64,000 bases of DNA from a phage: the sequence record OZ335961.1, one strand, 5' to 3'. Under the pieces are notes generated by a model that saw only the letters and a list, made by a program, of their open reading frames with translations, was not told the DNA's origin and ran no database searches. Every line of letters starts with the position of its first letter. Position 1 is the stretch's first letter. Both the position numbers and the translations under genes were made by a program. Below are positions 18,442 through 64,000 of this stretch, piece after piece.

Positions 18442-18466
18442 ATTTAGCTCCTTTATTTATCATATT

Positions 18467-18474: not shown

Positions 18475-18491
18475 GAATAAAAGGAGCATCT

Positions 18492-19496
18492 ATGGCAAAC
18501 ATTATTCGTTGTAAATTACCAGATGGTGTTCATCGTTTTAAACCATTTACGGTAGAAGATTATCGAGATTTTTTGTTAGTTCGAAACGATATAGAACATC
18601 GGTCACCACAAGAACAAAAAGAAATAATTGCTGATTTAATTGCCGATTATTTTGGAGACTATCCGAAGACTTGGCAACCATTTATATTTTTGCAGGTATT
18701 TGTAGGGTTATTTATCATATTTATAAATAGAATAAAAGGAGCATCTATGGCAAACATTATTCGTTGTAAATTACCAGATGGTGTTCATCGTTTTAAACCA
18801 TTTACGGTAGAAGATTATCGAGATTTTTTGTTAGTTCGAAACGATATAGAACATCGGTCACCACAAGAACAAAAAGAAATAATTGCTGATTTAATTGCCG
18901 ATTATTTTGGAGACTATCCGAAGACTTGGCAACCATTTATATTTTTGCAGGTATTTGTAGGGTCAATAGGTAAAACTAAAGTACCGGTCACATTTGTATG
19001 TCCAAAATGTAAAAAAGAAAAGACAGTTCCATTTGAAATATATCAAAAAGAATTAAAGGAACCTGTTTTTGATGTAGCTAATGTTAAAATTAAATTAAAG
19101 TTTCCTTCTGAGTTTTATGAAAATAAAGCAAAGATGATTACTGAAAATATTCATTCTGTTCAAGTAGATGAAACATGGTATGATTGGAAGGAAATTAGCG
19201 AATCAAGTCAAATAGAACTTGTTGATGCAATCGAGATAGAAACATTAGAAAAAATTCTCGATGCAATGAATCCTATTAATTTAACATTGCATATGTCATG
19301 TTGTAATAAGTATGTAAAAAAATACACTGATATAGTAGATGTGTTTAAGCTATTAGTTAACCCAGATGAAATATTTACTTTTTATCAAATTAATCACACA
19401 CTCGTAAAAAGTAATTATAGCTTAAATTCAATAATGAAAATGATTCCTGCTGAGCGCGGATTCGTATTAAAACTGATTGAGAAGGATAAACAATAA
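18492..19496 (+). CDS. 51: baseplate hub assembly catalyst gp51 carrying an 85-codon in-frame N-terminal tandem duplication (alternative start 18747 gives the normal 249 aa)
   Basis: 334-aa ORF in which residues 1-72 ([12 protein letters not shown]...FLQVFVG) recur at 86-157; second ATG at 18747 has its own TATAAATA and AAGGAG. Confidence 0.85.
18722..18729 (+). promoter_or_regulatory. duplicated late promoter core inside the gene 51 duplication
   Basis: Second copy of TATAAATA with AAGGAG and ATG 18747. Confidence 0.55.
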
Positions 19497-25334: not shown

Positions 25335-25366
25335 TTATTATAACACAACACGAGGGACTTGTAAAC
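25335..25366 (-). promoter_or_regulatory. early-type sigma70 promoter (GTTTAC -35, TATAAT -10)
   Basis: Minus strand reads GTTTACAagtccctcgtgttgtgTTATAAT; near-identical block at 41306-41337. Confidence 0.5.
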
Positions 25367-29520: not shown

Positions 29521-29543
29521 CATATCCTCTCTAGTGTTTATTC

Positions 29544-37199: not shown

Positions 37200-37432
37200 A
37201 GTACGCCATACACCCTTTGTGCTTCAACTAATCCATCAAAATCCAATTTGAGATGTGTTATTTGGTCACCATCACCTGGATTCACAATTACTAATACTGA
37301 ACGAGGAGTTTCGGTAATAACACGAACCGATGTTTCTGGAAATCGTTCAGAAACCTTATTTACCAATTCCTGAGCAAATAGTTTAACTTTTTCTTGGAAT
37401 TCTTTAACAGTAATTGGTTTTTCGCTTAGCAT
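37196..37432 (-). CDS. hypothetical protein (cd-pseT cluster)
   Basis: 78-aa ORF. Confidence 0.5.
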   Translation of the reverse strand: MLSEKPITVKEFQEKVKLFAQELVNKVSERFPETSVRVITETPRSVLVIVNPGDGDQITHLKLDFDGLVEAQRVYGVL

Positions 37433-37953
37433 GTTGATCCCAGCTCCTTACTTTCAACGTTTTTAACTAATTTGACAGAAACTAATTCAGCATCTTGAGT
37501 AATCATTACCGGACCTTCTTCATACTCTTCGAGATACTCTAGAGCTTTCTTTTTAGCTTCTTCCTTCGTATCAGTTTGAGCATAGATATAAAACATACAA
37601 CCAGTAATACCTACTACTTTCCACTTAATTTCTTTATCAGCTTTAATTTCAAATTTACTGACAGAGTCATCTTTTTGAACTTCTTCGAAAAAAGAATATT
37701 CTAACATATAAGCAATTGAAAATAACGGGCTAACTTTATAGGATTCGCCCATTACATCAACAGCTTTATACCAGCAATCATCAATTTCACGTTTAATGCT
37801 AATAACATTTTTCGCAGGATCTATTTTTACTTTAAATGAATTTTCCCCAATAAACTGAGCAATTCGTTTATTAGCCCCACAGGTTTCATTAAAAATATCT
37901 TTATATCCAGCTTTAAAGCGATAAACCTTATCTTCTTCAAACCATTCGCTCAT
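37426..37953 (-). CDS. hypothetical protein (cd-pseT cluster)
   Basis: 175-aa ORF. Confidence 0.55.
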   Translation of the reverse strand: MSEWFEEDKVYRFKAGYKDIFNETCGANKRIAQFIGENSFKVKIDPAKNVISIKREIDDCWYKAVDVMGESYKVSPLFSIAYMLEYSFFEEVQKDDSVSKFEIKADKEIKWKVVGITGCMFYIYAQTDTKEEAKKKALEYLEEYEEGPVMITQDAELVSVKLVKNVESKELGSTC

Positions 37954-38684: not shown

Positions 38685-39905
<1,221 letters not shown>

Positions 39906-42955: not shown

Positions 42956-44125
42956 TTAAAAATATTTTTTAAAACTCATCATAACTTTATCATCAACATC
43001 ATTATCAATCTGTGCTACAAGGTAAGATGACAGTTCTACTTCCTGTGGCGCGGATTGAACATTATCAGAATTAAGGTATTCACGAATCCAAGGATACGGA
43101 TGTTTAACCGGAGCATCGGTAATTGGGCATGGAAGACCACACTGTTTCATACGAGATACAGTTAAGTAATCAATAAAGCTCCACATGCTATTTGTATTTA
43201 ATCCAGGAACATCGCCATCTTTAAATAAATGAACTGCCCAGTCTTTTTCTTGACGGTTAACTTCCATGAAAATATCAACTGCTTCTTGTTCACACTCTTG
43301 GGCGATTTTAACCCATTCATCACCATCAGTGCCAAGTTGAAGTTGACGAATAATATATTGGGTGCCTTTAAGGTGAAGCTGCTCATCACGTGCAATGAAC
43401 TTCATAATCTTGGCATTACCTTCCATGATTTCCATGTTCTTATGGAAGTTAAAGGTACATGCGAAAGATACATAAAAACGAATAGCTTCCAGTGCATTGA
43501 TTACATGAAGGCAAAGATAAAGAGATTTCATTAGTGCTTGTTTAGTACATTCAACAACTTTGCCTAACTCTTCTTTGCGAAATCCTTCTGATAAAATTCC
43601 TTCATAATCTTCAACCGCATTCTGATATTCACGAGTCTTAACTAGAACGTCATCATAATAACGACCAATAGATTCAGCACGTTTCATGATAGCTTTATCT
43701 AATACAATCTCATCAAATACCTTTGACGGATCAGTATAAAGATTTCGCATGATATGAGTATATGAACGGCTGTGAATAGTTTCACTAAAAGTCCATGTAG
43801 CAACCCATGTATCAAGACTTGGATCTGAAATTAACGACATAAGTACAGCAGACGGTGCACGACCCTGAATGCTATCTAGAAGTGATTGATACTTCAGGTT
43901 ATTAGTAAAAATATCTTGCTGATATTGAGGAAGCTTGTTAAATTGCGCAGCATCCATCATCAAGTTTACTTCTTCAGGACGCCAGAAAAATGATAATTGC
44001 TTTTCGGTTAAATCTTCAAAAACTTTATGGCGTTGAATATCATAACGCGCAATACCAAGACCTGAACCGAAGAACATAGGTTCTTTTAAAACATCAACTG
44101 GATTTGTATTAAAAACTGTAGACAT
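42956..44125 (-). CDS. nrdB: aerobic ribonucleotide reductase small subunit, uninterrupted
   Basis: Start at MSTVFNTNP (about 389 aa); continuous reading frame, no intron; TAATG overlap with upstream HNH gene. Confidence 0.92.
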   Translation of the reverse strand: MSTVFNTNPVDVLKEPMFFGSGLGIARYDIQRHKVFEDLTEKQLSFFWRPEEVNLMMDAAQFNKLPQYQQDIFTNNLKYQSLLDSIQGRAPSAVLMSLISDPSLDTWVATWTFSETIHSRSYTHIMRNLYTDPSKVFDEIVLDKAIMKRAESIGRYYDDVLVKTREYQNAVEDYEGILSEGFRKEELGKVVECTKQALMKSLYLCLHVINALEAIRFYVSFACTFNFHKNMEIMEGNAKIMKFIARDEQLHLKGTQYIIRQLQLGTDGDEWVKIAQECEQEAVDIFMEVNRQEKDWAVHLFKDGDVPGLNTNSMWSFIDYLTVSRMKQCGLPCPITDAPVKHPYPWIREYLNSDNVQSAPQEVELSSYLVAQIDNDVDDKVMMSFKKYF

Positions 44126-44856
44126 TAATTTTTCCTCTTTAAAATTCTGCCGTGTTTCCAACCTGGCGGTATAATATCATCTTTACCTATAAGCGTGCAT
44201 TCACTTCCATTATTAATCCATTTCTTACCGCGGATTCCTTTATAATCTCTTGGTTTTATTTTGTCAAACTTTGCATCAAGTTGATATGACCATCTAAATC
44301 CATAAGCATATTGAAATTTACCCTCGGCGCAATATTTGATATTTGACCCGTTTCCATTAACTGACCGGGACGCTGCTGCAATAGAGTGAAAAGTTTCTAT
44401 GAAATCCCCATCTAATGAGAATTTATGTATTTCTACAGATGGGCACGCATATCTATTCACGTTAGATACATGTTGTTTAGTTTCGTTTTTATGATGCTTA
44501 CCTAGCATTCCTTTAGGATGAGGATTATTTTTCCAATATTTCTTAAAGAACTCAGAATTAGCTTTAGCAAATAATTTTCTGTGTAAGCTGTACAATCTAT
44601 TATTAATTCTATTGCCAGCTTTATCTGTTGCCATTAGCGTTAATGCAGAGGCAAGTCCAAAATGGCCTTCATTTATCTTACACAGTAATAGATGTGCTAT
44701 AAAATGTTCTCTAGCTGTTAATTCAACTAAATTTTCTTTATCATCAGAACCTCCCATGCATCTAGGGATTATATGATGTGTCTCTTTATATTCTGATAAA
44801 GATTCCCGAGCCTGAGCTCGGGAAATTAGGTCGTTATAGATTTTTTGATAATTCAT
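44125..44856 (-). CDS. mobE: freestanding HNH homing endonuclease (MobE-like)
   Basis: 243-aa ORF with N-terminal HNH motif (HHIIPRCMGGSDDKENLVELTAREHFIAH) and C-terminal basic DNA-binding repeats; between nrdA and nrdB. Confidence 0.75.
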   Translation of the reverse strand: MNYQKIYNDLISRAQARESLSEYKETHHIIPRCMGGSDDKENLVELTAREHFIAHLLLCKINEGHFGLASALTLMATDKAGNRINNRLYSLHRKLFAKANSEFFKKYWKNNPHPKGMLGKHHKNETKQHVSNVNRYACPSVEIHKFSLDGDFIETFHSIAAASRSVNGNGSNIKYCAEGKFQYAYGFRWSYQLDAKFDKIKPRDYKGIRGKKWINNGSECTLIGKDDIIPPGWKHGRILKRKN

Positions 44857-48538: not shown

Positions 48539-49570
<1,032 letters not shown>

Positions 49571-49581
49571 ATTATCTCCTA

Positions 49582-49914
49582 TTAAAAAGGATCAGGAACA
49601 TATCCACTAGCTTTAATCATTTTAACTAATGTTACCATTCCTTTGTTAACTGCTTGTGAGATTTCATCAAAAACTTCATCATTAAAAAGTTCTAGCACAC
49701 CCTTCTGAACTTTTAATTTACAGCCAACAATTTCGTCATCGCCTATAGTAAATTCATTACCGCCAATTCCACCGAAAAACTTAATTACGCCAGTTAACTG
49801 TCTTCCACGAGAATATGGGTCGTGTGATAAAGTAATATGAGTCACCCCAGGTACAGTTTTAAATTGACAGCGGATGTTTACTTGAGCAATTCCAGTTACA
49901 TGAATGTCAGACAT
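49582..49914 (-). CDS. hypothetical protein (frd-32 cluster)
   Basis: 110-aa ORF. Confidence 0.5.
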   Translation of the reverse strand: MSDIHVTGIAQVNIRCQFKTVPGVTHITLSHDPYSRGRQLTGVIKFFGGIGGNEFTIGDDEIVGCKLKVQKGVLELFNDEVFDEISQAVNKGMVTLVKMIKASGYVPDPF

Positions 49915-51931: not shown

Positions 51932-52010
51932 TTTTATTTCCTTTTTAATTTAATTAACAGTTGGTGCTATGACGATGTATGACCTCATAGCTGGTCAGTG
52001 AGATAATTAT
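51932..52010 (-). promoter_or_regulatory. gene 32 translational operator (pseudoknot plus unstructured A/U-rich leader)
   Basis: Minus strand contains CTATGAggtcatacatcgTCATAG stem elements followed by TTAAATTAAAAAGGAAATAAAAATG. Confidence 0.55.
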
Positions 52011-52030
52011 AATCTATTTATAATAAGCAA

Positions 52031-52684
52031 TTAATACTTGCAAGATTTCACAGTTTCAATAAAAACACTTTTAGCTTTCTGCGAATCAATATTTAAAATT
52101 TTTCTATAAGCCTTTAACTTTATAGAATAATTATTCCAGACTAAATTATCAGTCTGTTCATCATGTTTATCGATTATATTTAAAAACGAATCAAGCAAGA
52201 TAAACGTCTCAAACGAAATTATATTCGATTGAAGTAGTTTAAAAATATAACTTGATTGAACTTTTGGATTATACTCAAAGATTTCTTTAAAAGCAGAAAC
52301 TTCAACTTTTTTACTAAAATAATAAATGTTGCGAATATCTTCTTCAAACTTAAATTTAATTTGCTTTAAGCGTCCGATATATTCACGATAAAACACAAGT
52401 GCATCAGCGTCAGAGATGTCACCAATCCAAGCATCTTGGTTAGCAACGAGATTGCTTATAAAGATTAAAGCAAGTTCCTTTAATTTATATTTTTCTGATA
52501 ACTTCTGGAAAAAATACTTATCCCTTCGCTTTTGATAAGCGGCATCAGACACCCGCATGCACCAATTATACTTAATTACATCATACTTTCCATTCATATG
52601 TTGTTTTATCATTAAGTATAATTTATAAACTGATTTACCATCAATGTATCTTTCACCACCAGCAGGCATGCGGAGTTTAATCAT
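52031..52684 (-). CDS. 59: helicase loader
   Basis: 217-aa ORF directly upstream of gene 32; T4 length. Confidence 0.9.
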   Translation of the reverse strand: MIKLRMPAGGERYIDGKSVYKLYLMIKQHMNGKYDVIKYNWCMRVSDAAYQKRRDKYFFQKLSEKYKLKELALIFISNLVANQDAWIGDISDADALVFYREYIGRLKQIKFKFEEDIRNIYYFSKKVEVSAFKEIFEYNPKVQSSYIFKLLQSNIISFETFILLDSFLNIIDKHDEQTDNLVWNNYSIKLKAYRKILNIDSQKAKSVFIETVKSCKY

Positions 52685-53019
52685 AGTAGAAAATCTAATG
52701 TATTAGTTTTTTCACAACGAACAACAGAAGGACGTAAAAGATTTTCGTCAATAGCTTCTGACTGAATTTTTTCAATTATACCCGAAGGAATAAATTTAGC
52801 AAATTGAGTTTCAGGAATAGAATTTTCTTCTAAGAATGCTGTTGTAGCTTCAAGATAACTCATTCCAAACTCTTCTACCATTTTTTCAATTATAAATCCA
52901 TTTTCTTGACGGTCAAGAAGCTTTGCAATTTCATCTTTTTCTTTCTTAATTGAAAGTTCTTTTTCTGAAAGACCGGTCTCATCGACCGGACGAATATCAT
53001 TTAGAGAAAACTGTGTCAT
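52681..53019 (-). CDS. 33: late transcription co-activator
   Basis: Start at MTQFSL gives 112 aa. Confidence 0.85.
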   Translation of the reverse strand: MTQFSLNDIRPVDETGLSEKELSIKKEKDEIAKLLDRQENGFIIEKMVEEFGMSYLEATTAFLEENSIPETQFAKFIPSGIIEKIQSEAIDENLLRPSVVRCEKTNTLDFLL

Positions 53020-53266
53020 AAAGTTCAACTACCTCTTCAGTTTCAGCTTCAAACACATCACGGTTATCTTTATGATACAAAGCTAACAGACGATTAAACA
53101 TCTTGCCATCAACACCAAGTTCATCTTTGGCACGAATTCGAATATCTTTAATCAATTCATTATAACCAGAAATTTTCAGTTTATGATCAGATGCTTCTTT
53201 AATAAATTTAGCCAAGTCTTCGCCATGGATAGCTTCATCAAATTCAACCATTTCTTTTTTAGCCAT
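52997..53266 (-). CDS. dsbA: DsbA dsDNA-binding protein (late transcription)
   Basis: 89-aa ORF between rnh and 33. Confidence 0.85.
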   Translation of the reverse strand: MAKKEMVEFDEAIHGEDLAKFIKEASDHKLKISGYNELIKDIRIRAKDELGVDGKMFNRLLALYHKDNRDVFEAETEEVVELYDTVFSK

Positions 53267-53274
53267 TATTCACC

Positions 53275-54192
53275 TCAAAATTCATTAATGCTATTAGTTA
53301 ATTTAGAAAGACCCGCTTTTACAAAATATGAATAAATTTTGCCACGCGGTGGTAATTTATATGAATTATAGTAATTCACAATGTTTGAAGCAATATTATC
53401 AGGAATATAATCAAAATCAATTAGAACTAAATTTTCTTTATAACGATTATATTCAGATTCTGTGAGAAGCACCTTAGCTTGCTCACGGTCATTAGCAATA
53501 GCTTCAACAATAGAGGTTTTCATTGAAGGAGTTCGTTCACCTTCAACTCTGGTAAACCAAAAGTCAGATCGTACTTTAACTGAAGCAACGTTATCCTTTT
53601 TGTCGCCTTTAAGGATTTTAGTCATACAGTCAATTTCAGCAGAACCGCTTTTAATTTTAACCCATTTCTTGTGCATCGGTGACCATTGCTTAACATTTGG
53701 GTATTTGTGAAGTTGAGTAAAGTCACCATCCGACGAAATGATTAAAATCTTATGTCCTTCTAAAGAGAACTTTTTAACAAGAACAGCGATATGATCATCT
53801 GCTTCATACTTATCAATATCCATAACGATGTATGGCATATAAGCTTTCAATTCATCTATAACTTTATGACTGGATTCAAAATAACCTTCCCAGTCCCAAG
53901 TAGATTCTTCTCGTGCTTTTCCACGGTTTTTCTTATAATAATAAGCGAAATCACGGCGCCAGTATCCAGATTTAGCGTTATCAATACACAGCACAATTTT
54001 AGTGTATCCAAGAGTTTTTGCTTTTTTGACATTAAACTTAATTGAGTTCAATATCAAATGACGAACCATCGATAAATTAATTTTTTCTTTATCTGGGAAG
54101 TTTACCAGAGCAGTTGAAAGTGCAATCTGACTAAAGTCAATTAAGCAAATTCCTTCTTTGTAATCTTCATCCAGCATCATTTCTAAATCCAT
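53275..54192 (-). CDS. rnh: RNase H / 5'-3' exonuclease (FEN family)
   Basis: Start at MDLEMMLDEDYKEG gives 305 aa. Confidence 0.9.
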   Translation of the reverse strand: MDLEMMLDEDYKEGICLIDFSQIALSTALVNFPDKEKINLSMVRHLILNSIKFNVKKAKTLGYTKIVLCIDNAKSGYWRRDFAYYYKKNRGKAREESTWDWEGYFESSHKVIDELKAYMPYIVMDIDKYEADDHIAVLVKKFSLEGHKILIISSDGDFTQLHKYPNVKQWSPMHKKWVKIKSGSAEIDCMTKILKGDKKDNVASVKVRSDFWFTRVEGERTPSMKTSIVEAIANDREQAKVLLTESEYNRYKENLVLIDFDYIPDNIASNIVNYYNSYKLPPRGKIYSYFVKAGLSKLTNSINEF

Positions 54193-54254
54193 ATGAACCC
54201 CGTTCAATTAGTGAGATTTCTATTATATACCATCTAAATCTTAAAGTAAACAAG

Positions 54255-54262
54255 TATAAATA
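54255..54262 (+). promoter_or_regulatory. late promoter core TATAAATA (gene 34)
   Basis: Exact match about 35 nt upstream of ATG 54297. Confidence 0.6.
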
Positions 54263-54296
54263 CTTATTATTGAAAACACAATAGGAGCCCGGGAGA

Positions 54297-57200
54297 ATGG
54301 CCGAGATTAAAAGAAAGTTCAGAGCAGAAGATGGTCTGGACGCAGGTGGCGATAAAATAATCAACGTAGCTTTAGCTGATCGTACCGTAGGAACTGACGG
54401 TGTTAACGTTGATTACTTAATTCAAGAAAACACAGTTCAACAATATGATCCAACTCGTGGATATTTAAAAGATTTTGTAATCATTTATAATAATCGTTTT
54501 TGGGCAGCAACGGATAATATTCCAAAACCTGCTGGAAGTTTTAATAGAATTCGTTGGAAAGCATTACGTACTGATGCCGTATATACAACCGTATCATCTG
54601 GACCGTATCAATTAAAATCCGGAGAAGCAATTTCAGTAGATACATCAGTTGGTAATGACATTGAGTTTACTTTACCACCTTCTCCGCTCGATGGAGAAAC
54701 AGTAATAATTCAAGATATCGGTGGAAAACCTGGTATAAATCAGGTTAAAATAAGTTCTTCAAATCAGAGCATTGTTAATTTTAGAGGTGAACAAGTACGT
54801 TCAGTTTTAATGACTCATCCAAAGTCACAGATGATATTCATTTTTAATAATCGTTTGTGGCAAATGTATGTTGCTGATTATAGCAGAGAAGCTGCAATTG
54901 TTACTCCATCGACTGCGTATCAAGCACAATCTAATGATTTTATCGTGCGTAGATTTACTTCCGCAGCGCCGATTAATATTAAACTTCCGAAATTTGCTAA
55001 TCATGGCGATATTATTAATTTCGTTGATTTAGATAAATTAAATCCTCTTTATCATACAATTGTCACGACATATGATGAAACAACTTCAGTACAAGAAGTT
55101 GGAACTCATTCCATTGAAGGCCGTACATCGATTGACGGTTTCTTGATGTTTGATGATAATGAAAAATTATGGAGATTGTTTGACGGGGATAGTAAAGCGC
55201 GTTTACGTATCATAACGACTAATTCAAACATTCGTCCAAATGAAGAAGTTATGGTATTTGGTGCGAATAACGGAACAACCCAAACAATTGAGCTTCAGCT
55301 TCCAACTAATATTTCTGTTGGTGATACTGTTAAAATTTCCATGAATTACATGAGAAAAGGCCAAACAGTTAAAATCAAAGCTGCCGGTGAAGATAAAATT
55401 GCTTCTTCAGTTCAATTGTTGCAATTCCCAAAGCGTTCAGAGTATCCGCCTGAAGCTGAATGGGTGACTGTTCAAGAATTAGTTTTTAATGGTGAAACTA
55501 ATTATGTTCCAGTTTTACAGCTTGCTTATATTGAAGATTCTGACGGAAAATACTGGGTAGTACAACAAAACGTTCCAACAGTTGAAAGAGTTGATTCTTT
55601 AAATAATTCTACTAGAGCAAGATTAGGCGTAATTGCTTTAGCTACACAAGCCCAAGCTAACGTCGATTTAGAAAATTCTCCACAAAAAGAATTAGCAATT
55701 ACTCCAGAAACATTAGCTAACCGTACTGCTACAGAAACTCGTAGAGGTATCGCAAGAATAGCAACTACTGCTCAAGTAAATCAGAACACTACATTCTCTT
55801 TTGCTGATGACCTTATCATCACTCCTAAAAAGCTGAATGAAAGAACTGCTACAGAAACTCGCAGAGGTGTTGCTGAAATTGCTACGCAGCAGGAAACTAA
55901 TACAGGTACTGATGATACTACAATCATCACTCCTAAAAAGCTTCAAGCTCGTCAAGGTTCTGAAACATTATCGGGTATTGTAACTTTTGTATCTACCGCA
56001 GGAGCTACTCCAGCCTCTAGTCGTGAATTAAATGGTACAAATGTTTATAATAAAAATACTAATAATTTAGTTGTTTCGCCTAAAGCTTTGGATCAGTATA
56101 AAGCTACTCCAACACAACAAGGCGCAGTAATTTTAGCAGTTGAAAGTGAAGTAATTGCTGGACAGAGTCAAGAAGGATGGGCAAATGCGGTTGTAACGCC
56201 AGAAACGTTACATAAAAAAACATCAACTGATGGAAGAATTGGTTTAATTGAAATTGCTACGCAAAGCGAAGTTAATACAGGAACTGATTATACTCGCGCA
56301 GTCACTCCTAAAACTTTAAATGACCGTAGAGCAACTGAAAGTTTAAGTGGTATAGCTGAAATTGCTACACAAGTTGAATTCGACGCAGGCGTCGACGATA
56401 CTCGTATCTCTACACCATTAAAAATTAAAACTAGATTTGATAGTACTGATCGTACTTCTGTTGTTGCTCTGTCTGGATTAGTTGAATCAGGAACTCTCTG
56501 GGACCATTATACCCTTAATATTCTTGAAGCAAATGAGACACAACGTGGTACACTTCGTGTGGCTACACAAGTTGAAGCTGCTGCAGGAACATTAGATAAT
56601 GTTTTGATAACTCCTAAAAAGCTTTTAGGTACTAAATCTACTGAAGCGCAAGAAGGCGTTATTAAAGTTGCAACTCAAGTTGAAACTGTTACTGGAACGT
56701 CAGCAAATACTGCTGTATCTCCAAAAAATTTAAAATGGATTGTGCAAAGTGAACCTACTTGGGCAGCAACTACTTTGGTAAGAGGTTTTGTTAAAACTTC
56801 ATCTGGTTCAATTACATTCGTTGGTAATGATACAGTTGGTTCAACACAGTCATTAGACTTGTACGAGAAAAATAGCTATGCAGTATCGCCATATGAATTA
56901 AACCGTGTATTAGCAAATTATTTGCCGTTAAAAGCAAAAGCTGTAGATAGTAATTTATTGGATGGTCTAGATTCATCTCAGTTCATTCGTAGGGATATTG
57001 CGCAGACGGTTAATGGTTCACTAACCTTAACACAACAAACGAATCTGAGTGCCCCTCTTGTATCGTCTAGTACTGCTACGTTTGGTGGATCAGTTTCGGC
57101 AAATAGTACATTAACTATTTCTAATACTGGAACGGCAACTCGTCTGATTTTTGAGAAAGGACCTCAAACTGGGACGAACCCAGCTCAAACGATGACAGTC

Positions 57201-58166
57201 AGAGTGTGGGGAAATCAATTCAGCGGTGAATCGGACACAACACGTTCTACCGTATTTGAAGTTAGTGATGAAACGTCTAGTCATTTTTATTCTCAGCGTA
57301 ATAAAGCTGGTAATATAACATTTAATATCAATGGTACAGTAACGCCGATAAATGTTAATGCTTCAGGAACATTGAATGCGAATGGCGTAGCAACATTCGG
57401 CAGTTCGGTTACTGCTAATGGCGAATTTATCAGTAAATCATCGAATGCTTTTAGAGCAATAAACGGTGATTATGGATTCTTTATTCGTAATGATGGTGCT
57501 AACACCTATTTTATGCTTACTGCATCTGGTGATCAGACCGGTGGATTTAATGGATTACGTCCTTTAACTATTAATAATGCATCTGGTCAAGTAACGATTG
57601 GTGAAAGTTTAATCATTGCCAAAGGTGCTACTATAAGTTCAGGCGGTTTAACTGTTAACTCGAGAATTCGTTCTCAGGGTACTAAAACCTCTGATTTATA
57701 TACCCGTGCGCCAACATCTGATACTGTAGGATTCTGGTCAATCGATATTAATGATTCAGCCACTTATAACCAGTTCCCGGGTTATTTTAAGATGGTTGAA
57801 AAAACTAATGAAGTGACTGGGCTTCCATACTTAGAACGTGGTGAAGAAGTTAAATCTCCTGGTACATTGACCCAGTTTGGTAACACACTTGATTCGCTTT
57901 ACCAAGATTGGATTACTTATCCAACGACTCCAGAAGCACGTACCACTCGCTGGACACGTACATGGCAGAAAACCAAAAACTCTTGGTCAAGTTTTGTTCA
58001 GGTATTTGACGGAGGTAACCCTCCTCAACCTTCAGATATAGGAGCGATCCCATCTGATAACGGAATAATAGGTAATCTTACTATTCGCGATTTCTTACGA
58101 ATTGGTAATGTTCGCATTATTCCTGACCCAGTGAATAAAACTGTTAAATTTGAGTGGATTGAATAA
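54297..58166 (+). CDS. 34: long tail fibre proximal subunit
   Basis: 1289-aa ORF with repeated ATxTxxGI.xIAT motifs; late promoter 54255-54262. Confidence 0.93.
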   Translation: MAEIKRKFRAEDGLDAGGDKIINVALADRTVGTDGVNVDYLIQENTVQQYDPTRGYLKDFVIIYNNRFWAATDNIPKPAGSFNRIRWKALRTDAVYTTVSSGPYQLKSGEAISVDTSVGNDIEFTLPPSPLDGETVIIQDIGGKPGINQVKISSSNQSIVNFRGEQVRSVLMTHPKSQMIFIFNNRLWQMYVADYSREAAIVTPSTAYQAQSNDFIVRRFTSAAPINIKLPKFANHGDIINFVDLDKLNPLYHTIVTTYDETTSVQEVGTHSIEGRTSIDGFLMFDDNEKLWRLFDGDSKARLRIITTNSNIRPNEEVMVFGANNGTTQTIELQLPTNISVGDTVKISMNYMRKGQTVKIKAAGEDKIASSVQLLQFPKRSEYPPEAEWVTVQELVFNGETNYVPVLQLAYIEDSDGKYWVVQQNVPTVERVDSLNNSTRARLGVIALATQAQANVDLENSPQKELAITPETLANRTATETRRGIARIATTAQVNQNTTFSFADDLIITPKKLNERTATETRRGVAEIATQQETNTGTDDTTIITPKKLQARQGSETLSGIVTFVSTAGATPASSRELNGTNVYNKNTNNLVVSPKALDQYKATPTQQGAVILAVESEVIAGQSQEGWANAVVTPETLHKKTSTDGRIGLIEIATQSEVNTGTDYTRAVTPKTLNDRRATESLSGIAEIATQVEFDAGVDDTRISTPLKIKTRFDSTDRTSVVALSGLVESGTLWDHYTLNILEANETQRGTLRVATQVEAAAGTLDNVLITPKKLLGTKSTEAQEGVIKVATQVETVTGTSANTAVSPKNLKWIVQSEPTWAATTLVRGFVKTSSGSITFVGNDTVGSTQSLDLYEKNSYAVSPYELNRVLANYLPLKAKAVDSNLLDGLDSSQFIRRDIAQTVNGSLTLTQQTNLSAPLVSSSTATFGGSVSANSTLTISNTGTATRLIFEKGPQTGTNPAQTMTVRVWGNQFSGESDTTRSTVFEVSDETSSHFYSQRNKAGNITFNINGTVTPINVNASGTLNANGVATFGSSVTANGEFISKSSNAFRAINGDYGFFIRNDGANTYFMLTASGDQTGGFNGLRPLTINNASGQVTIGESLIIAKGATISSGGLTVNSRIRSQGTKTSDLYTRAPTSDTVGFWSIDINDSATYNQFPGYFKMVEKTNEVTGLPYLERGEEVKSPGTLTQFGNTLDSLYQDWITYPTTPEARTTRWTRTWQKTKNSWSSFVQVFDGGNPPQPSDIGAIPSDNGIIGNLTIRDFLRIGNVRIIPDPVNKTVKFEWIE

Positions 58167-58174
58167 GAGGTATT

Positions 58175-59290
58175 ATGGAAAAATTTATGGCAGAGTTTGG
58201 ACAAGGATATGTCCAAACGCCATTTTTATCGGAAAGTAATTCAGTAAGATACAAAATAAGTATAGCGGGTTCTTGCCCGCTTTCCACAGCAGGACCGTAT
58301 GTTAAATTTCAAGATAACCCAGTTGGAAATCAAACATTTAGTGCAGGTCTTCATTTAAGAGTTTTTGATCCTTCTACGGGAGCATTAGTTGATAGTAAGT
58401 CATATGCTTTTTCTACTTCAAATAATACTACATCAGCTGCTTTTGTTAGTTTCATGAATTCTTTGTCAAACAATAGACTTGCTGCTATATTGACTAGCGG
58501 AAAGGTTAATTTTCCTCCTGAAGTGGTATCTTGGCTAAGGAAAGCAGGAACTTCAGTTTTTCCATCAGATTCAGTATTGTCAAGATTTGACGTATCATAT
58601 GCTGCTTTTTACACTTCTTCTAAAAGAGCTATTGCATTAGAACATGTTAAACTAAGTAATAGAAAAAGCACAGATGATTATCAAACTATTTTAGATGTTG
58701 TATTTGACAGCTTAGAAGATGTTGGGGCGACAGGATTTCCTAAAAGAACATATGAAAGTGTCGAGCAATTTATGTCAGCGGTTGGTGGAACTAATAACGA
58801 AATTGCGCGATTGCCAACTTCAGCTGCTATAAGTAAACTTTCTGACTATAATTTAATTCCTGGTGATGTTCTTTATCTTAAAGCACAGTTATATGCTGAT
58901 GCTGATTTACTTGATCTTGGAACTACAAATATATCCATTCGTTTTTATGATGCATCAAATGGATATATTTCTTCGACACAGGCTGAGTTTACTGGACAAG
59001 CTGGATCTTGGGAATTAAAGGAAGATTATGTAGTTGTTCCTGAAAATGCAGTCGGATTTACGATATATGCACAGAGAACTGCTCAAGCTGGTCAAGGCGG
59101 CATGAGGAATTTAAGTTTTTCTGAAGTGTCAAGAAATGGCGGCATTTCAAAACCTGCCGAATTTGGCGTCAATGGTATTCGCGTTAATTATGTCTGTGAA
59201 TCGGCTTCACCTCCAGATATAATGGTACTTCCTACACAAGCATCGTCTAAAACTGGCAAAGTATTTGGGCAAGAATTTAGAGAAGTTTAA
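58175..59290 (+). CDS. 35: long tail fibre hinge connector
   Basis: 371-aa ORF, AAGAGG RBS. Confidence 0.88.
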   Translation: MEKFMAEFGQGYVQTPFLSESNSVRYKISIAGSCPLSTAGPYVKFQDNPVGNQTFSAGLHLRVFDPSTGALVDSKSYAFSTSNNTTSAAFVSFMNSLSNNRLAAILTSGKVNFPPEVVSWLRKAGTSVFPSDSVLSRFDVSYAAFYTSSKRAIALEHVKLSNRKSTDDYQTILDVVFDSLEDVGATGFPKRTYESVEQFMSAVGGTNNEIARLPTSAAISKLSDYNLIPGDVLYLKAQLYADADLLDLGTTNISIRFYDASNGYISSTQAEFTGQAGSWELKEDYVVVPENAVGFTIYAQRTAQAGQGGMRNLSFSEVSRNGGISKPAEFGVNGIRVNYVCESASPPDIMVLPTQASSKTGKVFGQEFREV

Positions 59291-59295
59291 ACTGA

Positions 59296-59318
59296 GGGAG
59301 CCTTCGGGTTCCCTTTTT
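59296..59318 (+). terminator. intrinsic terminator after gene 35
   Basis: GGGAGCC-TTCG-GGTTCCC hairpin followed by TTTTTCTTT. Confidence 0.7.
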
Positions 59319-59321
59319 CTT

Positions 59322-59329
59322 TATAAATA
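59322..59329 (+). promoter_or_regulatory. late promoter core TATAAATA (gene 36)
   Basis: Exact match directly after the terminator. Confidence 0.6.
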
Positions 59330-59352
59330 ATATTAAAATAAAGGGGCATATA

Positions 59353-60003
59353 ATGGCTGATTTAAAAGTAGGTTCAACTGTGGGTGGATCTGTCATTTGG
59401 CATCAAGGAAATTTTCCATTGAATTCAGCCGGTGACGATGTACTCTACAAATCATTTAAAATATATTCAGAATATAATAAACCGCAGGCAGCTGATAACG
59501 ATTTCGTTTCTAAAGCTAATGGTGGTACTTACACCGGTCCAGTTACTATTAATTATGGTGTAAATAGTTATCTTCAATTAAGTAATAATGAAACCCCCAT
59601 TCGAATTCGTTCTGGTGGCGGTACCGGTAATACTCTTGTAGTTGGCGGCTCTTCTGGCGGTATTAGTTTTAGACCTGCAGGTAGTGAAATCACAACTGGA
59701 CAAATTACTATTACGCCAGAAGGTTTGACAACATTTACTAGGGCTGTAACGGCTCCATCTGTAACTGTTACATCTACTCCTTCCGCAGCATCTGATGTTA
59801 CTCGTAAAGATTATGTTGATGGAGCAATAAATACTGTTACAGCAAATGCAAACTCTAGAGTGTTACGATCTGGTGACACCATGACAGGTAATTTAACAGC
59901 GCCAAACTTTTTCTCGCAGAATCCTGCATCTCAACCTTCACACGTTCCACGATTTGATCAAATTGTTATTAAAGATTCTGTTCAAGATTTCGGCTATTAT
60001 TAA
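59353..60003 (+). CDS. 36: long tail fibre distal small subunit
   Basis: 216-aa ORF after terminator and late promoter. Confidence 0.85.
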
Positions 60004-60011
60004 GAGGACTT

Positions 60012-62978
60012 ATGGCTACTTTAAAACAAATACAATTTAAAAGAAGCAAAACTGCAGGTCAACTTCCTGCTGCTTCAGTATTAGCCGAAGGTGAATTGGC
60101 TATTAATTTAAAAGATAAAACAATTTTCACAAAAGATGACTCAGGCAATGTTATAGAATTAGGTTTAAAATATGGAGGAACAATTGATGGTTCTTTAACT
60201 GTTAATGGAAATATAATTGGAAATTTAACAGGTAACGCTGCAACTGCAACGAAATTAAAAACAGCACGAAAAATTAATGGTATATCCTTTGATGGGTCAA
60301 AAGATATCACGCTAACTCCATCTGACATAAATGTCAATAGCACAACGTTTATAAAAAATAACGGCGAATTACCGGTTGATGCTAATTTAGATACGTATGG
60401 GCCTGTTGAAGAATATCTTGGAGTTTGGTCGAAAGCAACTTCAACCAACGCTCAACCAGCAAATAAATTTCCAGAAGAAAATGCTGTAGGTGTGCTAGAA
60501 GTATTTGTGGCCGGTCAATTTGCTGGTACTCAGCGTTATACAACTAGATACGGAAATGTTTATATTCGTTCCTTGACTGCTACATGGAACGGAGTAAACG
60601 GTCCGTGGAGTGTGTGGCGAAATATTCAATCCGGTACTCGTCCACTGTCAACAACAATTGATCTTAATGATTTAGGAGGAGCTGAACACCTTGGTTTGTG
60701 GCGAAATAGTTCAAATTCCATTGCTACATTTGACAGAAATTTCCCAGAAGAGGGGTCGTCAGCTCAAGGTCTTTTGGAAGTATATGAAGGTGGAAACTAT
60801 TCTCGTACACAAAGATATACAACCAGATTTGGTGTTGTTTATACTCGTTGTCTTGCTGCCGCGTGGGATTCTACTGCGCCTAAATGGGGACCGTGGCAAC
60901 AAGTCGGTAATGTCACACCAGCGACTTTTTATGATGGAGATCTGAATGATTTTAAAACTCCTGGGTTATATAATATTTTAGGCACTGATGCCGTTATTAA
61001 TTGTCCTACAGGCGAAGGTTTACCAGCCGTTATTGTTGGTTTGCTGGAAGTTAAACAGCGTGCTTCTGGTGGTGCTATTTTCCAAAAATTTACTACTGCC
61101 GGAACAGGTGCAACTACCCGCGATCGTATTTTTGAGCGCGCATATACCGGCGGTGTGTGGGGTGAATGGAACGAAGTATACACATCTTATTCTCTACCAA
61201 TTACTTTGGGTATGGGCGGTATTAAATCTAACTTAGCAGAGTTAGACTGGCAAGCATTTGATTTTGTTCCTGGTAGTATGTTTAGCGTTCCTTTGAACAA
61301 AATAAAGAACATGCCAGCTAATATGGATTGGGGTACGATTAACGGAAACTTAATTATGTTTTCTGTTGGTCCTAGCGAGCACACCAGCACAGGACGTACT
61401 GTTCAAGTTTGGCGTGGAACTGTATCCCAGACAAACTATCGTTATTTTGTCGTTCGTGTATTCGGTAATCCAGGGAGTAGAACATGTACAGTTCGACGCG
61501 TTGTTCTTGAAGACGGATCACATACTTGGACTGCTAAACAAGATTTTAATGGCGCAGTTAACTTTAACTCTACTGTTAACCTTAATAACACTACCACATT
61601 TAAAACAGAAGTTAAATTCCGCTCGTTGAATGCATTCCGTATGTATGGCGGAAAATTTGGTACATTTTTACGTAATGATGGAGAGAGTCTTTATATTCTT
61701 TCCACCGACGAAGATGATCAAGATGGAAACTTTAATACAAATAGACCTTTCCGTTATGAATTAAGAACTGGTGATGTTACTTTAGGTGGTACTAGTGGTG
61801 CTAACGTTTTAAAATTAAAACGTGATTCTCTCACCGCATTTTTTGGTGGTGATATTAACATGAAAGGCTTGCTGACTTTTGACGCCGGACGTTTAGGATC
61901 ACGAGATTATTTTAAATTTAACCATTGGGGTGATAGTAATAATGCGCGTGATAACATTATTCAGTTAGAAGACAGCAAAGGCGCTCATTTTTCCACTGAA
62001 CGTACTTTAGCGACTGGTGCAATTAAGACTAAATTTTTTGGTGAAATTGAATCCGATGGTAAATTGGTTATTAAACGTCCGGGTGATTCTATTGTATTAT
62101 CAACAACTGCTAGTAATTCTTTGCATATTCGTGGTGACATAGACGGGACTGGTAACTGGTATATTGGTAAGGGTGGTGCTGATAATGGATTAGCGTTATA
62201 TAGTTATGCTACTAATGCTGGTGTATACATTACAAACGCAGGAGATATCACGCTAAGTCCAAAAGGCGTCGAAATGGCCCATGTCAATAACGTTCGATTA
62301 TATGTTCACGGTGAACGTTGGACTGCTAGTCAACCAGGTGATTGGGGTAGTCAGTGGCAAGTGGAAGCGCCAATATTCGTCGATCATGGTTATGTTTCAC
62401 AGGATTGTTATTATCCAATTATTAAAGGAAGAAGTGTAATCACCAATCAAGGGTTTGTAACTGCCGTCGATCTTGGTATTCGTCGTGTCAATAACAATTG
62501 GGGACAAGCAATTATTCGTGTTGGATCTGCGGAGGCATCGCCAGCGGCTGGACACCCTAACGCGGTATTTGAATTTCATTACGACGGTACTTTCTATTCT
62601 CCTGGTAATGGTAACTTTAACGATGTGTATATTCGTTCCGATGGTCGTCTTAAGATTAATAAAAAAGAGCTAGAAAACGGAGCACTTGAAAAAGTATGCC
62701 GACTGAAAGTTTATACATACGATAAGGTTAAGTCTATTAAAGATCGTAGTGTTATTAAACGTGAAGTTGGTATTATTGCTCAGGATCTTGAAAAAGAATT
62801 ACCAGAAGCTGTGTCTAAAGTTGAAGTTGATGGATCTGATGTTCTGACAATTTCTAACTCCGCTGTGAATGCTCTTTTAATTAAGGCTATCCAAGAAATG
62901 AGCGAAGAAATTAAAGAATTAAAAACGCCTTTCTTCACTAAAATTGCTCGCAAAATTAGTAATTATTTTAAATTCTAA
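60012..62978 (+). CDS. 37: long tail fibre distal subunit with C-terminal intramolecular-chaperone domain (T2-type)
   Basis: 988-aa ORF; C-terminal about 112 aa carry S/DGRLK cleavage motif and [15 protein letters not shown]...[19 protein letters not shown]. Confidence 0.9.
62640..62975 (+). other. intramolecular chaperone / autoproteolytic C-terminal domain of gp37 (peptidase S74-like)
   Basis: Motif IRS|DGRLK followed by [15 protein letters not shown] and an amphipathic C-terminal helix. Confidence 0.7.
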
Positions 62979-62984
62979 CAACAA

Positions 62985-63000
62985 GGGGCTTTGCCCCTTT
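62985..63000 (+). terminator. hairpin after gene 37
   Basis: GGGGC-TTT-GCCCC followed by TTT; sits directly in front of the gene 38 RBS. Confidence 0.5.
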
Positions 63001-63010
63001 GGAGAAAATT

Positions 63011-63811
63011 ATGGCAGTAGTTGGTGTTCCCGGTTGGATTGGAAGTTCATCTGTAAATGAAACAGGACAACGATGGATGAGTCAAGCGGCTGGTCAATTA
63101 AGATTGGGTGTTCCTTGCTGGATGAGCCAATTCGCCGGACGCTCAAGAGAGATTATTCATACCGTAACAGCAAACCATAACTTTAATGGTCAATGGTTCC
63201 GCGACCGTTGCTTTGAAGCTGGCGGTGCACCCATTGTATTCAATATTGTTGGTGATATCGTTTCTTATTCTAAAGATGTGCCACTTTTCTTTATGTATGG
63301 GGATACGCCTAATGAATATGTTGTTCTTAATATTCATGGTGGTGTTCATATGTGGGGTCGTGGTGGTAATGGTGGATACACTCACTCAGGAGGCGACGGT
63401 AACGGTACACAAGGCGGTCATGTTATTCAAAATGATATCGGTGGACGGCTTCGTATTTGGAACTACGGTGTTATAGCTGCTGGGGGTGGCGGCGGTGGTG
63501 GTATTGCATATCGTCCACACTCAGGGGCAAACTGGCAAGATATCGGCGGTGGTGGTGGTCGACCTTTCGGTGGCGCTGGCGGCGGCGGTTATTCCGGTGG
63601 TGCTGCTTCGTATGAAGGTCCGGGTGGTGGTTATGACTATGGTAACGCACACTCCGGCGCAGGCGGTAATGCTGGTGCTGCTGGTCAGAATGCATGGTAT
63701 GACGGCGGTAAAGTTCTTAAAGTTGGTGTTGGTGGTGCGTCTGGTCATGCAGTGTTTGGGTCTTCTCCAACTTGGGGTGCTGTTGGAACAATTTACGGAC
63801 CAAGAGTATAA
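63011..63811 (+). CDS. 38: receptor-binding adhesin gp38 (T2-type, glycine-rich motifs)
   Basis: Track ORF opens at TTG 62999; ATG 63011 ([13 protein letters not shown]...); C-terminal half of poly-Gly blocks separated by short variable segments. Confidence 0.85.
63350..63750 (+). other. glycine-rich motif / hypervariable-segment region of gp38
   Basis: Runs of GGT/GGC codons ([40 protein letters not shown]) interrupted by short non-Gly segments. Confidence 0.7.
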
Positions 63812-63841
63812 TTTGAATAAATATCTTTAAAAGGAGGGTCT

Positions 63842-64000
63842 ATGGCAGCACCTAGAATATCATTTTCGCCCTCTGGTATTCTGTTTGGTGTTCTGGATCG
63901 CTTGTTCAAAGATAACGCTACCGGGAAGGTTCTTGCTTCCCGAGTAGCTGTCGTAATTCTTTTATTTATGATGGCGATTGTTTGGTATAGGGGAGATAGT
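63842..64000 (+). CDS. t: holin t (5' part only, truncated by window end)
   Basis: MAAPRISFSPSGILFGVLDRLFKDNATGKVLASRVAVVILLFMMAIVWYRGDS; AAGGAGG RBS. Confidence 0.8.
   Translation, partial: MAAPRISFSPSGILFGVLDRLFKDNATGKVLASRVAVVILLFMMAIVWYRGDS

Follow-up and report, generated by a model that had tools for sequence, protein, structure and literature searches.

[quoted passage not shown] In T2 and T6, gp37 is cleaved and is then capped by gp38 (PMC3157838, citing Drexler 1986), and the processing of T2 gp37 has been shown by experiment (Drexler 1986, cited in PMC3157838). In S16, the site where gp38 docks is reported to be uncovered when the gp37 chaperone domain is removed (PMC7917993), and three N-terminal tryptophans of gp38 dock into the gp37 trimer (PMC6851490). 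In T5, the tip stays covered, and receptor binding blocked, for as long as the chaperone is present (PMC4690869). The receptors reported for T2 are FadL and OmpF (PMC3157838), while Ox2 binds the loops of OmpA and the phages FL08 and AV119 need OmpA (PMC12032242).

In the present work, we have analysed a 64,000-nucleotide stretch of phage DNA (sequence record OZ335961.1; the window), near the end of which lie genes 36, 37 and 38. The genes and domains observed, the conservation of catalytic and docking residues, the matches in fold, the boundaries of the mosaic and the sequence identities indicate that this module is very probably the distal long-tail-fibre tip, in its adhesin-capped (T2/T6/Ox2/S16) form, from a Tequatrovirus, working as proposed below, and nothing in the sequence examined speaks against this reading. 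The features of the locus are as follows:

59322..59329, + strand: T4-type late promoter motif TATAAATA upstream of gene 36, from an exact-motif search
59353..60003, + strand: gene 36, 216 aa, gp35-gp37 connector (PHROG 1425, Pfam Phage_T4_gp36)
60012..62978, + strand: gene 37, 988-aa precursor of the distal half-fibre subunit
60012..60209, + strand: conserved N-terminus of gp37 (aa 1-66), common to T4 and T2 by blastp
61566..61754, + strand: Gp34_trimer-like domain of gp37 (aa 519-581; Pfam PF21446, 48.5 bits, cut-off 27)
62622..62636, + strand: DVYIR, gp37 aa 871-875, predicted last strand of mature gp37 and gp38 docking surface
62637..62975, + strand: S74 intramolecular chaperone domain, gp37 aa 876-988 (113 aa; Pfam PF13884)
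62637-62639 and 62652-62654, + strand: catalytic residues Ser876 and Lys881 of the S74 domain, from motif alignment
62985..62997, + strand: GGGGC-TTT-GCCCC hairpin between genes 37 and 38, read from the sequence
63011..63811, + strand: gene 38, 266 aa, predicted receptor-recognising adhesin
63011..63148, + strand: gp38 N-terminal attachment domain (aa 1-46) with Trp9, Trp22 and Trp37
63149..63361, + strand: gp38 central beta-helix region (aa 47-117), from homology to T6 and Ox2 and the AF2 model
63371..63418, + strand: gp38 variable segment 1 (aa 121-136), from column entropy
63500..63547, + strand: gp38 variable segment 2 (aa 164-179), from column entropy; follows the G7 run; N174 (K in Ox2)
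63575..63661, + strand: gp38 variable segment 3 (aa 189-217), from column entropy; G193 (R in Ox2)
63677..63739, + strand: gp38 variable segment 4 (aa 223-243), from column entropy; Y230 (S in Ox2)
63842..64000, + strand: beginning of gene t (holin), conserved right flank of the exchanged block

The genes run in the order 37-38-t, with 32 nt between the stop of gene 37 and the start of gene 38 and a 30-nt spacer ahead of gene t, whose translation (MAAPRISFSP...) is the counterpart of T4 gene t. Although the open reading frame of gene 38 was listed from a TTG at 62999 (270 aa), its true start is the ATG at 63011, since a Shine-Dalgarno sequence, GGAG (63001-63004), lies just 5' of it and the resulting 266 aa agree with the Ox2 annotation 'AA 1-266'. 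This GGAG is situated 3' of the intergenic hairpin, which was not called as a terminator in a terminator scan. On the plus strand, the late promoter motif precedes gene 34 (54255) and gene 36 (59322), and an exact-motif search of 59330-64000 on that strand returned zero sites; the window holds 20 sites against 8.3 expected. By its motif match, the site at 59322 is a putative promoter and the probable start of the 36-37-38 late transcript.

Comparison with T4 by blastn revealed 92.6% identity up to 59531, 89.8% over 59774-60166 and 96.2% from 63817, with nothing detectable across 60167-63816. Because the similarity stops at 60166 and resumes at 63817, the module has been swapped relative to T4, and the proposal in the preliminary description that the receptor-recognition module was exchanged within a T4-like backbone is borne out. 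Its remark that genes 34, 35 and 36 are close to T4 in length is also correct (1289, 371 and 216 aa vs 1289, 372 and 221 aa), as are the lengths it gave for T4 gp37 (1026 aa) and gp38 (183 aa), which are 988 and 266 aa here. The likeness to T4 comprises genes 34, 35 and t (92-96% identical), the gene order and gp37 aa 1-66. In gene 36 the central part has diverged, with DNA similarity lost over 59531-59774, and gp36 retains 70.9% aa identity to T4 gp36. The N-terminus of gp37 is 78.8% identical to aa 1-66 of T4 gp37 and 76% identical to aa 1-67 of T2 gp37, and blastp against T4 gp37 found no similarity beyond aa 1-66; this region is presumed to join gp36 and to form the left recombination anchor. 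T4 gp37 ends in a Collar and a His-rich receptor-binding needle and has no S74 domain, and T4 gp38, an assembly chaperone of 183 aa, is not related to the gp38 of the window. In contrast, the gp37 of the window has no His-rich needle tip, and a Pfam search of it found neither the Collar nor the Phage_fiber domain, both of which T4 gp37 has. A T4-type gp38 chaperone together with a T4-type gp37 needle was considered and rejected, gp38 having no detectable similarity to its T4 namesake and gp37 being common over aa 1-66 only. Adhesin-form gp38 is found in 806 phage records vs 297 with T4-type gp38; the adhesin form is thus the majority, and it is T4, not the phage of the window, that has the minority arrangement (PMC3157838; PMC6851490).

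Over its full length gp37 matches PHROG 1699 ('long tail fiber protein distal subunit', E 4e-223), and aa 512-593 are matched by the PDB gp34 chains 4UXE and 5NXF. That this protein ends in an S74-type self-cleaving chaperone domain is supported by a Pfam match, an intact catalytic dyad and a fold match, its cleavage being expected by analogy. The Peptidase_S74 model (PF13884) aligns at positions 1-57 of 58 with gp37 aa 876-934 (45.3 bits, cut-off 22), and as controls the domain was present in T2 gp37 and absent from T4 gp37. It comprises the last 113 of the 988 residues of the distal fibre subunit, and its SDGRLK sequence places the catalytic serine and lysine at i/i+5 (Ser876/Lys881), a spacing equal to that of Ser1264/Lys1269 in T5 pb1 (PMC4690869). 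Alignment with the S16 gp37 construct in 6F45_A (SSDRRIK) and with 8JOV (SDERLK) agrees with this assignment of Ser876 and Lys881, and these two residues, as well as the whole DVYIR cut-site motif, are intact in 12 of the 12 relatives that cover the site. An AF2 monomer model of the chaperone (pLDDT 79.9) predicts a mixed alpha/beta body and, after it, a long helix at the C-terminus (fragment residues 89-125), which in the S74 family builds the trimeric coiled coil, and in a Foldseek search with this model ranks 1-11 were all S74 domains (7DC3, 3GUD, 3GW6 and 4UW8), the top match being 7DC3 (E 1.2e-5, TM 0.68). With the K1F endosialidase (3GW6), GA-1 neck appendage (3GUD), T5 pb1 (4UW8) and MyRF (7DC3) the domain shares its fold, the Ser/Lys i/i+5 spacing and a C-terminal position on a trimeric fibre (PMC4690869); it differs in that Foldseek identities are 8-22% and the upstream passenger domains are unrelated.

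By analogy with T5, K1F and S16, the scissile bond is most likely Arg875/Ser876, before the serine (PMC7917993; PMC4690869). The autoproteolysis motif IRSDGRLK of the preliminary description is indeed present (gp37 aa 874-881), but the cut was there placed after the serine, a position that these precedents do not favour. The chaperone length of about 112 aa presumed the same cut, and a cut before Ser876 would instead release 113 aa. The identical motif DVYIR^SDGRLKI is in print as a tip strand with a predicted cut site (PMC7917993), and from T2, S16 and T5 we infer autoproteolytic release after folding of the gp37 trimer (PMC3157838, PMC7917993, PMC4690869).

The second component, gp38, is supported as a tip adhesin of the T2/S16 class by its Pfam, PDB sequence and fold matches, and its presence on the virion is expected by analogy. 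Pfam identified Gp38_N (PF21721; 70.2 bits, aa 1-42) and GP38 (PF05268; 223.7 bits, aa 47-266), both with cut-offs of 25; T2 gp38 has both families and T4 gp38 neither. The full length matches PHROG 2056 ('tail fiber protein; host specificity', E 9e-108), and sequence matches in the PDB are 9V85 (E 3.9e-61) and 6F45_D (E 3.2e-43). These are also the only significant PDB matches of the AF2 model (pLDDT 84.9), with a target-normalised TM of 0.87 and an rmsd of 2.6 A for 9V85 and a TM of 0.72-0.77 for 6F45_D. The model has strands through the aa 47-117 region and the beta-helix and polyglycine sandwich of the adhesin class, and gene 38 lies directly 3' of a gene 37 with a predicted cleavable C-terminus. 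The N-terminal 45 residues are modelled at low confidence, as one would expect where folding takes place against the gp37 trimer. Within aa 1-46, which are 100% identical to T6 and Ox2, Trp9, Trp22 and Trp37 align with the three S16 tryptophans and are found in 114, 114 and 103 of 120 gp38 homologues, respectively. The aa 47-117 region is 98.6% identical to T6 and 91.5% to Ox2. Glycine makes up 26% of the protein and 36% of aa 118-266, with runs of G7 (aa 158-164), G5, G4 and G3, so that the earlier account of a glycine-rich protein of about 266 aa, typical of a tip adhesin, stands. Homologues of gene 38 carry labels such as 'assembly catalyst' and 'tail protein and peptidase', which are misleading for the adhesin class.

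Four variable segments were defined by column entropy across the 120 gp38 homologues. These alternate in the C-terminal half with glycine motifs, whose invariant clusters are at aa 116-121, 135-136, 158-162, 181-187 and 222-225, a pattern that agrees with the published scheme of five motifs and four segments (PMC3157838). The measured extent, 63371-63739, falls inside the approximate span of 63350-63750 suggested previously.

The nearest relatives of the module are Ox2 and T6. Ox2, an OmpA phage of the Henning laboratory, is represented by GenBank X05675.1, which covers the 3' end of gene 37 and gene 38, the rest of its gp37 being absent from the record. Its gp38, likewise 266 aa long, is 96.2% identical to that of the window, and the receptor-binding half reaches 97.3%. 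In gp37 the C-terminal 251 aa, which take in the cut site and the chaperone domain, are 99.2% identical with two substitutions, and the order 37-38-t and the 30-nt spacer ahead of t are shared. Ten substitutions separate the gp38s, six of them in aa 52-83, where the window is nearer to T6 (whose residues 1-117 are close to its own), and four in the receptor domain (window/Ox2: N174/K, G193/R, Y230/S and A257/V). The gp38 of vB_VIPECOOM01-03, already in GenBank, is 100% identical. The VIPECOOM01 gp37, however, shows just 79.5% identity and has diverged over aa 525-682, a sign of recombination within gene 37. The phages vB_EcoM_Nami and EcNP1 match across the entire 3.8-kb module, with 97.4-97.5% DNA identity; in Nami, gp37 is 98.1% and gp38 99.6% identical at the aa level, and six aa are inserted in its gp37 after aa 516. 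The S16 tip complex (PDB 6F45) has the architecture predicted for the module, namely a gp37 trimer with a 113-residue C-terminal chaperone cut before a serine (DLNVS^SDRRIKK) (PMC7917993) and a gp38 cap in which three tryptophans for docking are joined to a beta-helix and a polyglycine sandwich (PMC6851490), whereas the gp38 identity is 41% (Foldseek) and the gp37 tip before the cut and the variable loops differ. T2 shares the S74 domain at the gp37 C-terminus, Gp38_N with GP38, and a cut motif of the form NVYIR-SD.RLK (NVYIR-SDIRLK in T2). Its gp37, however, is 1341 aa long, and what it has in common is limited to aa 1-67 and some 125 aa at the C-terminus (45%). For gp38 the identity to T2 is 53% over the whole protein and 28% over the variable segments. 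The designation "T2-type" therefore holds for the architecture and fails as a statement of closeness to T2 itself.

Two other accounts of how the tip works have to be set against the adhesin-capped reading. It is very improbable that the S74 domain is inactive or uncleaved and stays on the mature fibre, with gp38 binding elsewhere or transiently. Cleavage of this gp37 is predicted from homologues, and the position of the phi29 serine relative to the cut has been modelled differently, details varying in the family (PMC4690869), but Ser876 and Lys881 are intact here and kept in every relative covering the site, T2 gp37 with its NVYIR-SDIRLK motif is processed, and the T5 and S16 precedents make removal of the domain the step that frees the tip. 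That gp38 acts solely as an assembly chaperone as in T4, with gp37 itself recognising the receptor, is hardly credible. Its position equals that of T4 gene 38, and some homologue records are labelled 'distal long tail fiber assembly catalyst', yet such labels are inherited T4 gene names, and an alignment of gp38 with T4 gp38 is meaningless, with 0 identities and no detectable similarity. T4 gp38 matches neither Pfam family, the Collar and His-rich needle tip are lacking from gp37, and gp38 is strongly homologous, by sequence as well as by fold, to adhesins that were crystallised on the tip of the fibre or whose receptor-binding domain is defined. From Ox2, T2, T6, S16 and PP01, the gp38 of the window is thus expected to be on the virion and to set receptor specificity (PMC3157838, PMC6851490, PMC12892980).

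The receptor prediction leaves more room for doubt. Over the variable segments alone, identity is 96.3% to Ox2, 84.1% to FL08, 85.4% to AV119 and 84-90% across the experimentally typed OmpA binders FL08, AV119, KIT03 and SH7, vs 21-28% to T6, T2, M1, FL18, Ac3 and Bp7, which represent Tsx, FadL/OmpF and OmpA 'type 2' sets (receptors as assigned in PMC12032242). OmpA is therefore the predicted receptor, most likely as primary receptor and maybe with an LPS contribution. RB32, whose gp38 is 86.5% identical to that of the window, requires OmpA and is affected by the composition of the LPS (PMC3157838). For phages whose gp38 is 99% or more identical, a search of the literature turned up no receptor experiment. 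The same architecture could serve a receptor that is not OmpA, or not OmpA alone (OmpC, OmpF, Tsx, LPS or a second receptor), which we regard as unlikely though a realistic prospect. Small changes in variable segments are reported to switch receptors, as in PST vs T6 and SV76 vs T2, and for Ox2 and RB32 a single receptor is reported not to suffice (PMC3157838); Ox2 host-range mutants are on record (cited in PMC12892980), and related Yersinia phages with an equal gp37 cut-site motif use OmpF and LPS (PMC7917993). The four receptor-domain differences from Ox2 (174, 193, 230 and 257) point the same way, but at positions 174 and 193 the residues, while unlike Ox2, are those of OmpA 'type 1' adhesins, and closely related gp38s mostly share a receptor (PMC12032242). 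Single substitutions in Ox2-type gp38 are reported to alter receptor specificity (PMC12892980, PMC12032242, citing Drexler 1989), and the presence of a T6-like body (aa 1-117) with Ox2-like loops carrying Y230, A257, N174 and G193 raises the rather improbable suggestion that the range of receptors or OmpA variants is unlike that of Ox2.

Under the adhesin-capped reading with OmpA as most likely receptor, genes 36-37-38 would be transcribed late, probably from TATAAATA at 59322, and gp37 would be made as a 988-aa precursor whose last 113 residues, the S74 chaperone, nucleate fibre trimerisation. After correct folding of the trimer, Ser876, with Lys881 as its activator, would cut Arg875/Ser876 and the chaperone would leave, yielding 875-aa mature gp37 subunits and exposing a tip of DVYIR strands. 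By analogy with homologues, one copy of gp38 would dock on this tip via its N-terminal helical domain with Trp9, Trp22 and Trp37. Its C-terminal half would form the polyglycine sandwich, with the conserved glycine motifs as scaffold and the four variable segments as distal loops touching the receptor; the loop set, being as in Ox2 and the 'type 1' OmpA binders, would make OmpA the most likely primary receptor, with LPS possible.

This tail-fibre tip module is ordinary and already known, and its importance beyond correct annotation is slight, as it represents the majority form among T-even phages. If the range of the adhesin does differ from that of Ox2, it would show in nature the kind of host-range switch by single residues that was first obtained by laboratory selection. 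The practical value of the analysis lies in the receptor prediction (OmpA, perhaps with LPS), which may be of use for the design of phage cocktails and for anticipating resistance, and in the exact loop coordinates, which give the segments to swap when retargeting the phage.

Comparison of the window with T4 by blastn reveals 92.6% identity over 52030-59531, 89.8% over 59774-60166, and 96.2% from 63817, with no detectable similarity over 60167-63816. This gap between similar flanks upholds the proposal of the preliminary description that the receptor-recognition module has been exchanged relative to a T4-like backbone. The swapped block is therefore ~3.65 kb long, with its left anchor in the conserved N-terminus of the fibre subunit gp37 (aa 1-66) and its right anchor just beyond the stop of gene 38. 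A smaller second patch in the centre of gene 36 (59531-59774; gp36, 70.9% aa identity) has also lost DNA similarity to T4, so that the mosaic reaches upstream of gene 37. Mosaicism is also seen among close relatives, viz. VIPECOOM01, in which gp37 has diverged over aa 525-682 despite an identical gp38. In the phage collection, the adhesin-type gp38 is found in 806 records vs. 297 for the T4-type gp38, in agreement with published statements that the T4 form is the less common one (PMC3157838, PMC6851490).

The long tail fibre genes 34-38 are five open reading frames in succession.

Long tail fibre genes and the adjoining holin gene
54297-58166, + strand, gene 34, 1289 aa
58175-59290, + strand, gene 35, 371 aa
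59353-60003, + strand, gene 36, 216 aa
60012-62978, + strand, gene 37, 988 aa
62999-63811 (as listed), + strand, gene 38, 270 aa if read from TTG
63842 (start), gene t (holin)

The corresponding lengths in the T4 record (gp34-38: 1289, 372, 221, 1026, and 183 aa) match those given in the preliminary description, which were therefore correct. The TTG at 62999 is rejected as the start of gene 38 and the true start is the ATG at 63011, giving 266 aa, because the TTG sits just 3' of a hairpin between genes 37 and 38 (GGGGC-TTT-GCCCC, 62985-62997), a Shine-Dalgarno sequence (GGAG, 63001-63004) precedes the ATG, and 266 aa is the annotated gp38 length in Ox2, Nami, and VIPECOOM01 alike. T4-type late promoter motifs (TATAAATA) are present on the + strand at 54255 (5' of gene 34) and 59322 (5' of gene 36) and none was found on this strand downstream of 59322, which suggests that genes 36-38 probably form a single late transcript. 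Scans for sigma-70 promoters and terminators gave matches only at chance level, and tRNA and Rfam scans across the window gave no match.

Several other differences from T4 were observed elsewhere in the window. A 255-bp unit is perfectly (100%) duplicated in tandem at 18453-18963 (2.0 copies), covering the late-promoter motif, the ribosome-binding site, and the beginning of gene 51 (baseplate hub assembly); the open reading frame from 18492 encodes 334 aa vs. 249 aa in T4, and a normal start is regained in the second copy, at 18747. In the best-matching relatives, this stretch measures 596 bp vs. 851 here, and they therefore have one copy of the unit; the duplication could be a very recent event or an assembly artefact. 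The T4 mobile elements segD, segE, the nrdB intron with I-TevIII, the td intron with I-TevI, and segG are absent, with clean junctions vs. T4 at ~9850-9911, ~14677-14697, 43458-43461, 47989/47990, and 51994-52030. Two full-length alt-like paralogues (RNA polymerase ADP-ribosyltransferase) are located on the - strand (25366-27423 and 27427-29523; 685 and 698 aa), and two copies are annotated in relatives as well; T4 has one alt and the remnants alt.-1 and alt.-2. For four stretches (37431-37951, 39589-39903, 49345-49858, and 44126-44687), T4 has no equivalent in the corresponding position; one of them contains a 175 aa open reading frame (37426-37953, - strand), and the region in which mobE lies in T4 is diverged and overlaps a 243 aa open reading frame (44125-44856, - strand).

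The C-terminus of gp37 was described earlier as an S74-type self-cleaving intramolecular chaperone, and this assignment is borne out by the Pfam match, the catalytic residues, and the fold. Peptidase_S74 scores 45.3 bits (cut-off 22) over aa 876-934 (model positions 1-57), and alignment to known S74 domains confirms Ser876 and Lys881 within the motif IRSDGRLK (aa 874-881). The region aligns with the crystallised S16 gp37 construct of 6F45 (SSDRRIK) and with 8JOV (SDERLK), and more weakly with the MyRF ICA domain. In control searches, the T2 gp37 C-terminus carries Peptidase_S74, and in T4 gp37 Collar and Phage_fiber are found in its place; NCBIfam returned no family for gp37, gp38, or T4 gp38. 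The AlphaFold2 model of aa 861-988 (pLDDT 79.9) combines a mixed alpha/beta body with a long helix at its end, and its top 11 Foldseek matches in the PDB are all S74 chaperone domains, viz. MyRF 7DC3 (E 1.2e-5, TM 0.68), GA-1 3GUD, endoNF 3GW6, and T5 pb1 4UW8. A search with the C-terminal 128 aa gave 21 matches, mostly gene fragments, a set sufficient for checking the motif and too shallow for broad family statistics; the 12-letter cut-site motif is kept in all 12 relatives covering the site.

The cut itself had been placed at IRS|DGRLK, one residue too late. In T5 pb1, Lys1269 activates the catalytic Ser1264, residue 1263 is the last of the mature fibre, and the serine leaves with the released chaperone, as also reported for K1F (PMC4690869). 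For S16 gp37, PMC7917993 gives the cut as DLNVS^SDRRIKK and a chaperone of 113 residues, and for Yersinia T4-like phages with the identical sequence DVYIR^SDGRLKI cleavage is predicted between Arg and Ser (PMC7917993). By analogy with these positions, cleavage is predicted to leave a mature gp37 of aa 1-875 and to release the last 113 residues (aa 876-988).

No internal repeats were seen when gp37 was compared with itself by BLASTP. A Smith-Waterman test against shuffled sequences showed one clear duplicated domain in the shaft (aa 134-209 and 225-302; 60411-60638 and 60684-60917), with the motif ...GxLEV...TQRYTTRxGxVYxRxL...W and a score of 166 vs. 29 +/- 5 for the shuffles; near aa 341-389 there may be a weak third copy, which is not significant. 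A match to PHROG 4618 ("tail collar fiber protein") overlaps this duplication. The Gp34_trimer domain at aa 519-581 (61566-61754) is also found in gp34 and represents an old intra-fibre duplication.

The tip adhesin gp38 is covered over its whole length by Gp38_N (aa 1-42, 70 bits) and GP38 (aa 47-266, 224 bits), and matches PHROG 2056 ("tail fiber protein; host specificity") at full length. Searching the PDB by sequence returned only 9V85 (E 3.9e-61), the receptor-binding domain of PP01 gp38 (PMC12892980), and S16 gp38 6F45_D (E 3.2e-43), and the AlphaFold2 model (pLDDT 84.9) likewise matches only these two folds (TM 0.87 and 0.72-0.77, respectively). Three tryptophans (Trp9, Trp22, and Trp37, kept in 114, 114, and 103, respectively, of the 120 homologues compared) align with those by which S16 gp38 plugs into the gp37 trimer (PMC6851490). 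By analogy with its homologues, gp38 is predicted to be carried on the virion. Its glycine motifs are invariant across the 120 homologues and four segments are variable, which reproduces an arrangement already described (PMC3157838), with four hypervariable segments alongside five glycine-rich motifs.

Variable segments of gp38, from variability over 120 homologues
Segment 1, aa 121-136
Segment 2, aa 164-179
Segment 3, aa 189-217
Segment 4, aa 223-243

Together they span 63371-63739, in agreement with the 63350-63750 estimated previously, and the expected homology to T2/S16-type adhesins was found.

The label "T2-type" holds for the architecture of the module and not for its kinship, the relatives being Ox2 and T6. 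T2 gp38 shares 53% identity, and T2 gp37 (1341 aa) has only the first 67 and last ~125 aa in common. The classical phage Ox2 has a gp38 of equal length (96.2% identity) and a gp37 that is 99.2% identical over the last 251 aa. Nami and EcNP1 share the whole 3.8-kb module (97.4-97.5% DNA identity; Nami gp37, 98.1% protein identity), and vB_VIPECOOM01-03 have 100% identical gp38.

Identity to gp38 by region (OmpA "type 1" group: FL08, AV119, KIT03, SH7)
aa 1-46: Ox2 100%; T6 100%; OmpA "type 1" group 50-57%; T2, M1, FL18, Ac3, Bp7 28-96%
aa 47-117: Ox2 91.5%; T6 98.6%; OmpA "type 1" group 83-85%; T2, M1, FL18, Ac3, Bp7 38-89%
Variable segments: Ox2 96.3%; T6 25.9%; OmpA "type 1" group 84-90%; T2, M1, FL18, Ac3, Bp7 21-28%

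Labels of gene 38 homologues vary (viz. "distal long tail fiber assembly catalyst", "tail protein and peptidase", and "hypothetical protein"), and a near-identical module (95.6% DNA identity) occurs in the record of Pseudomonas phage PsgM02F, a host label unexpected for a Tequatrovirus.

OmpA dependence has been shown for FL08 and AV119, Ox2 binds OmpA loops (PMC12032242), and RB32, whose gp38 is 86.5% identical to that here, needs OmpA and also shows sensitivity to LPS composition (PMC3157838). For EcNP1, VIPECOOM01, Nami, ASO78A, WL-3, and ECML-134, which have near-identical gp38, a literature search listed no paper with a receptor experiment in its title or abstract. By analogy with the phages of established OmpA use, OmpA is the likely receptor, a prediction to be read with the caveat that small changes in gp38 can switch the receptor.

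Overall, the original observation is confirmed and its interpretation is supported with three refinements, concerning the predicted cut, the closest relatives, and the place of T4. Tail-fibre tip modules of this type are already known, and it is T4 that is the outlier.
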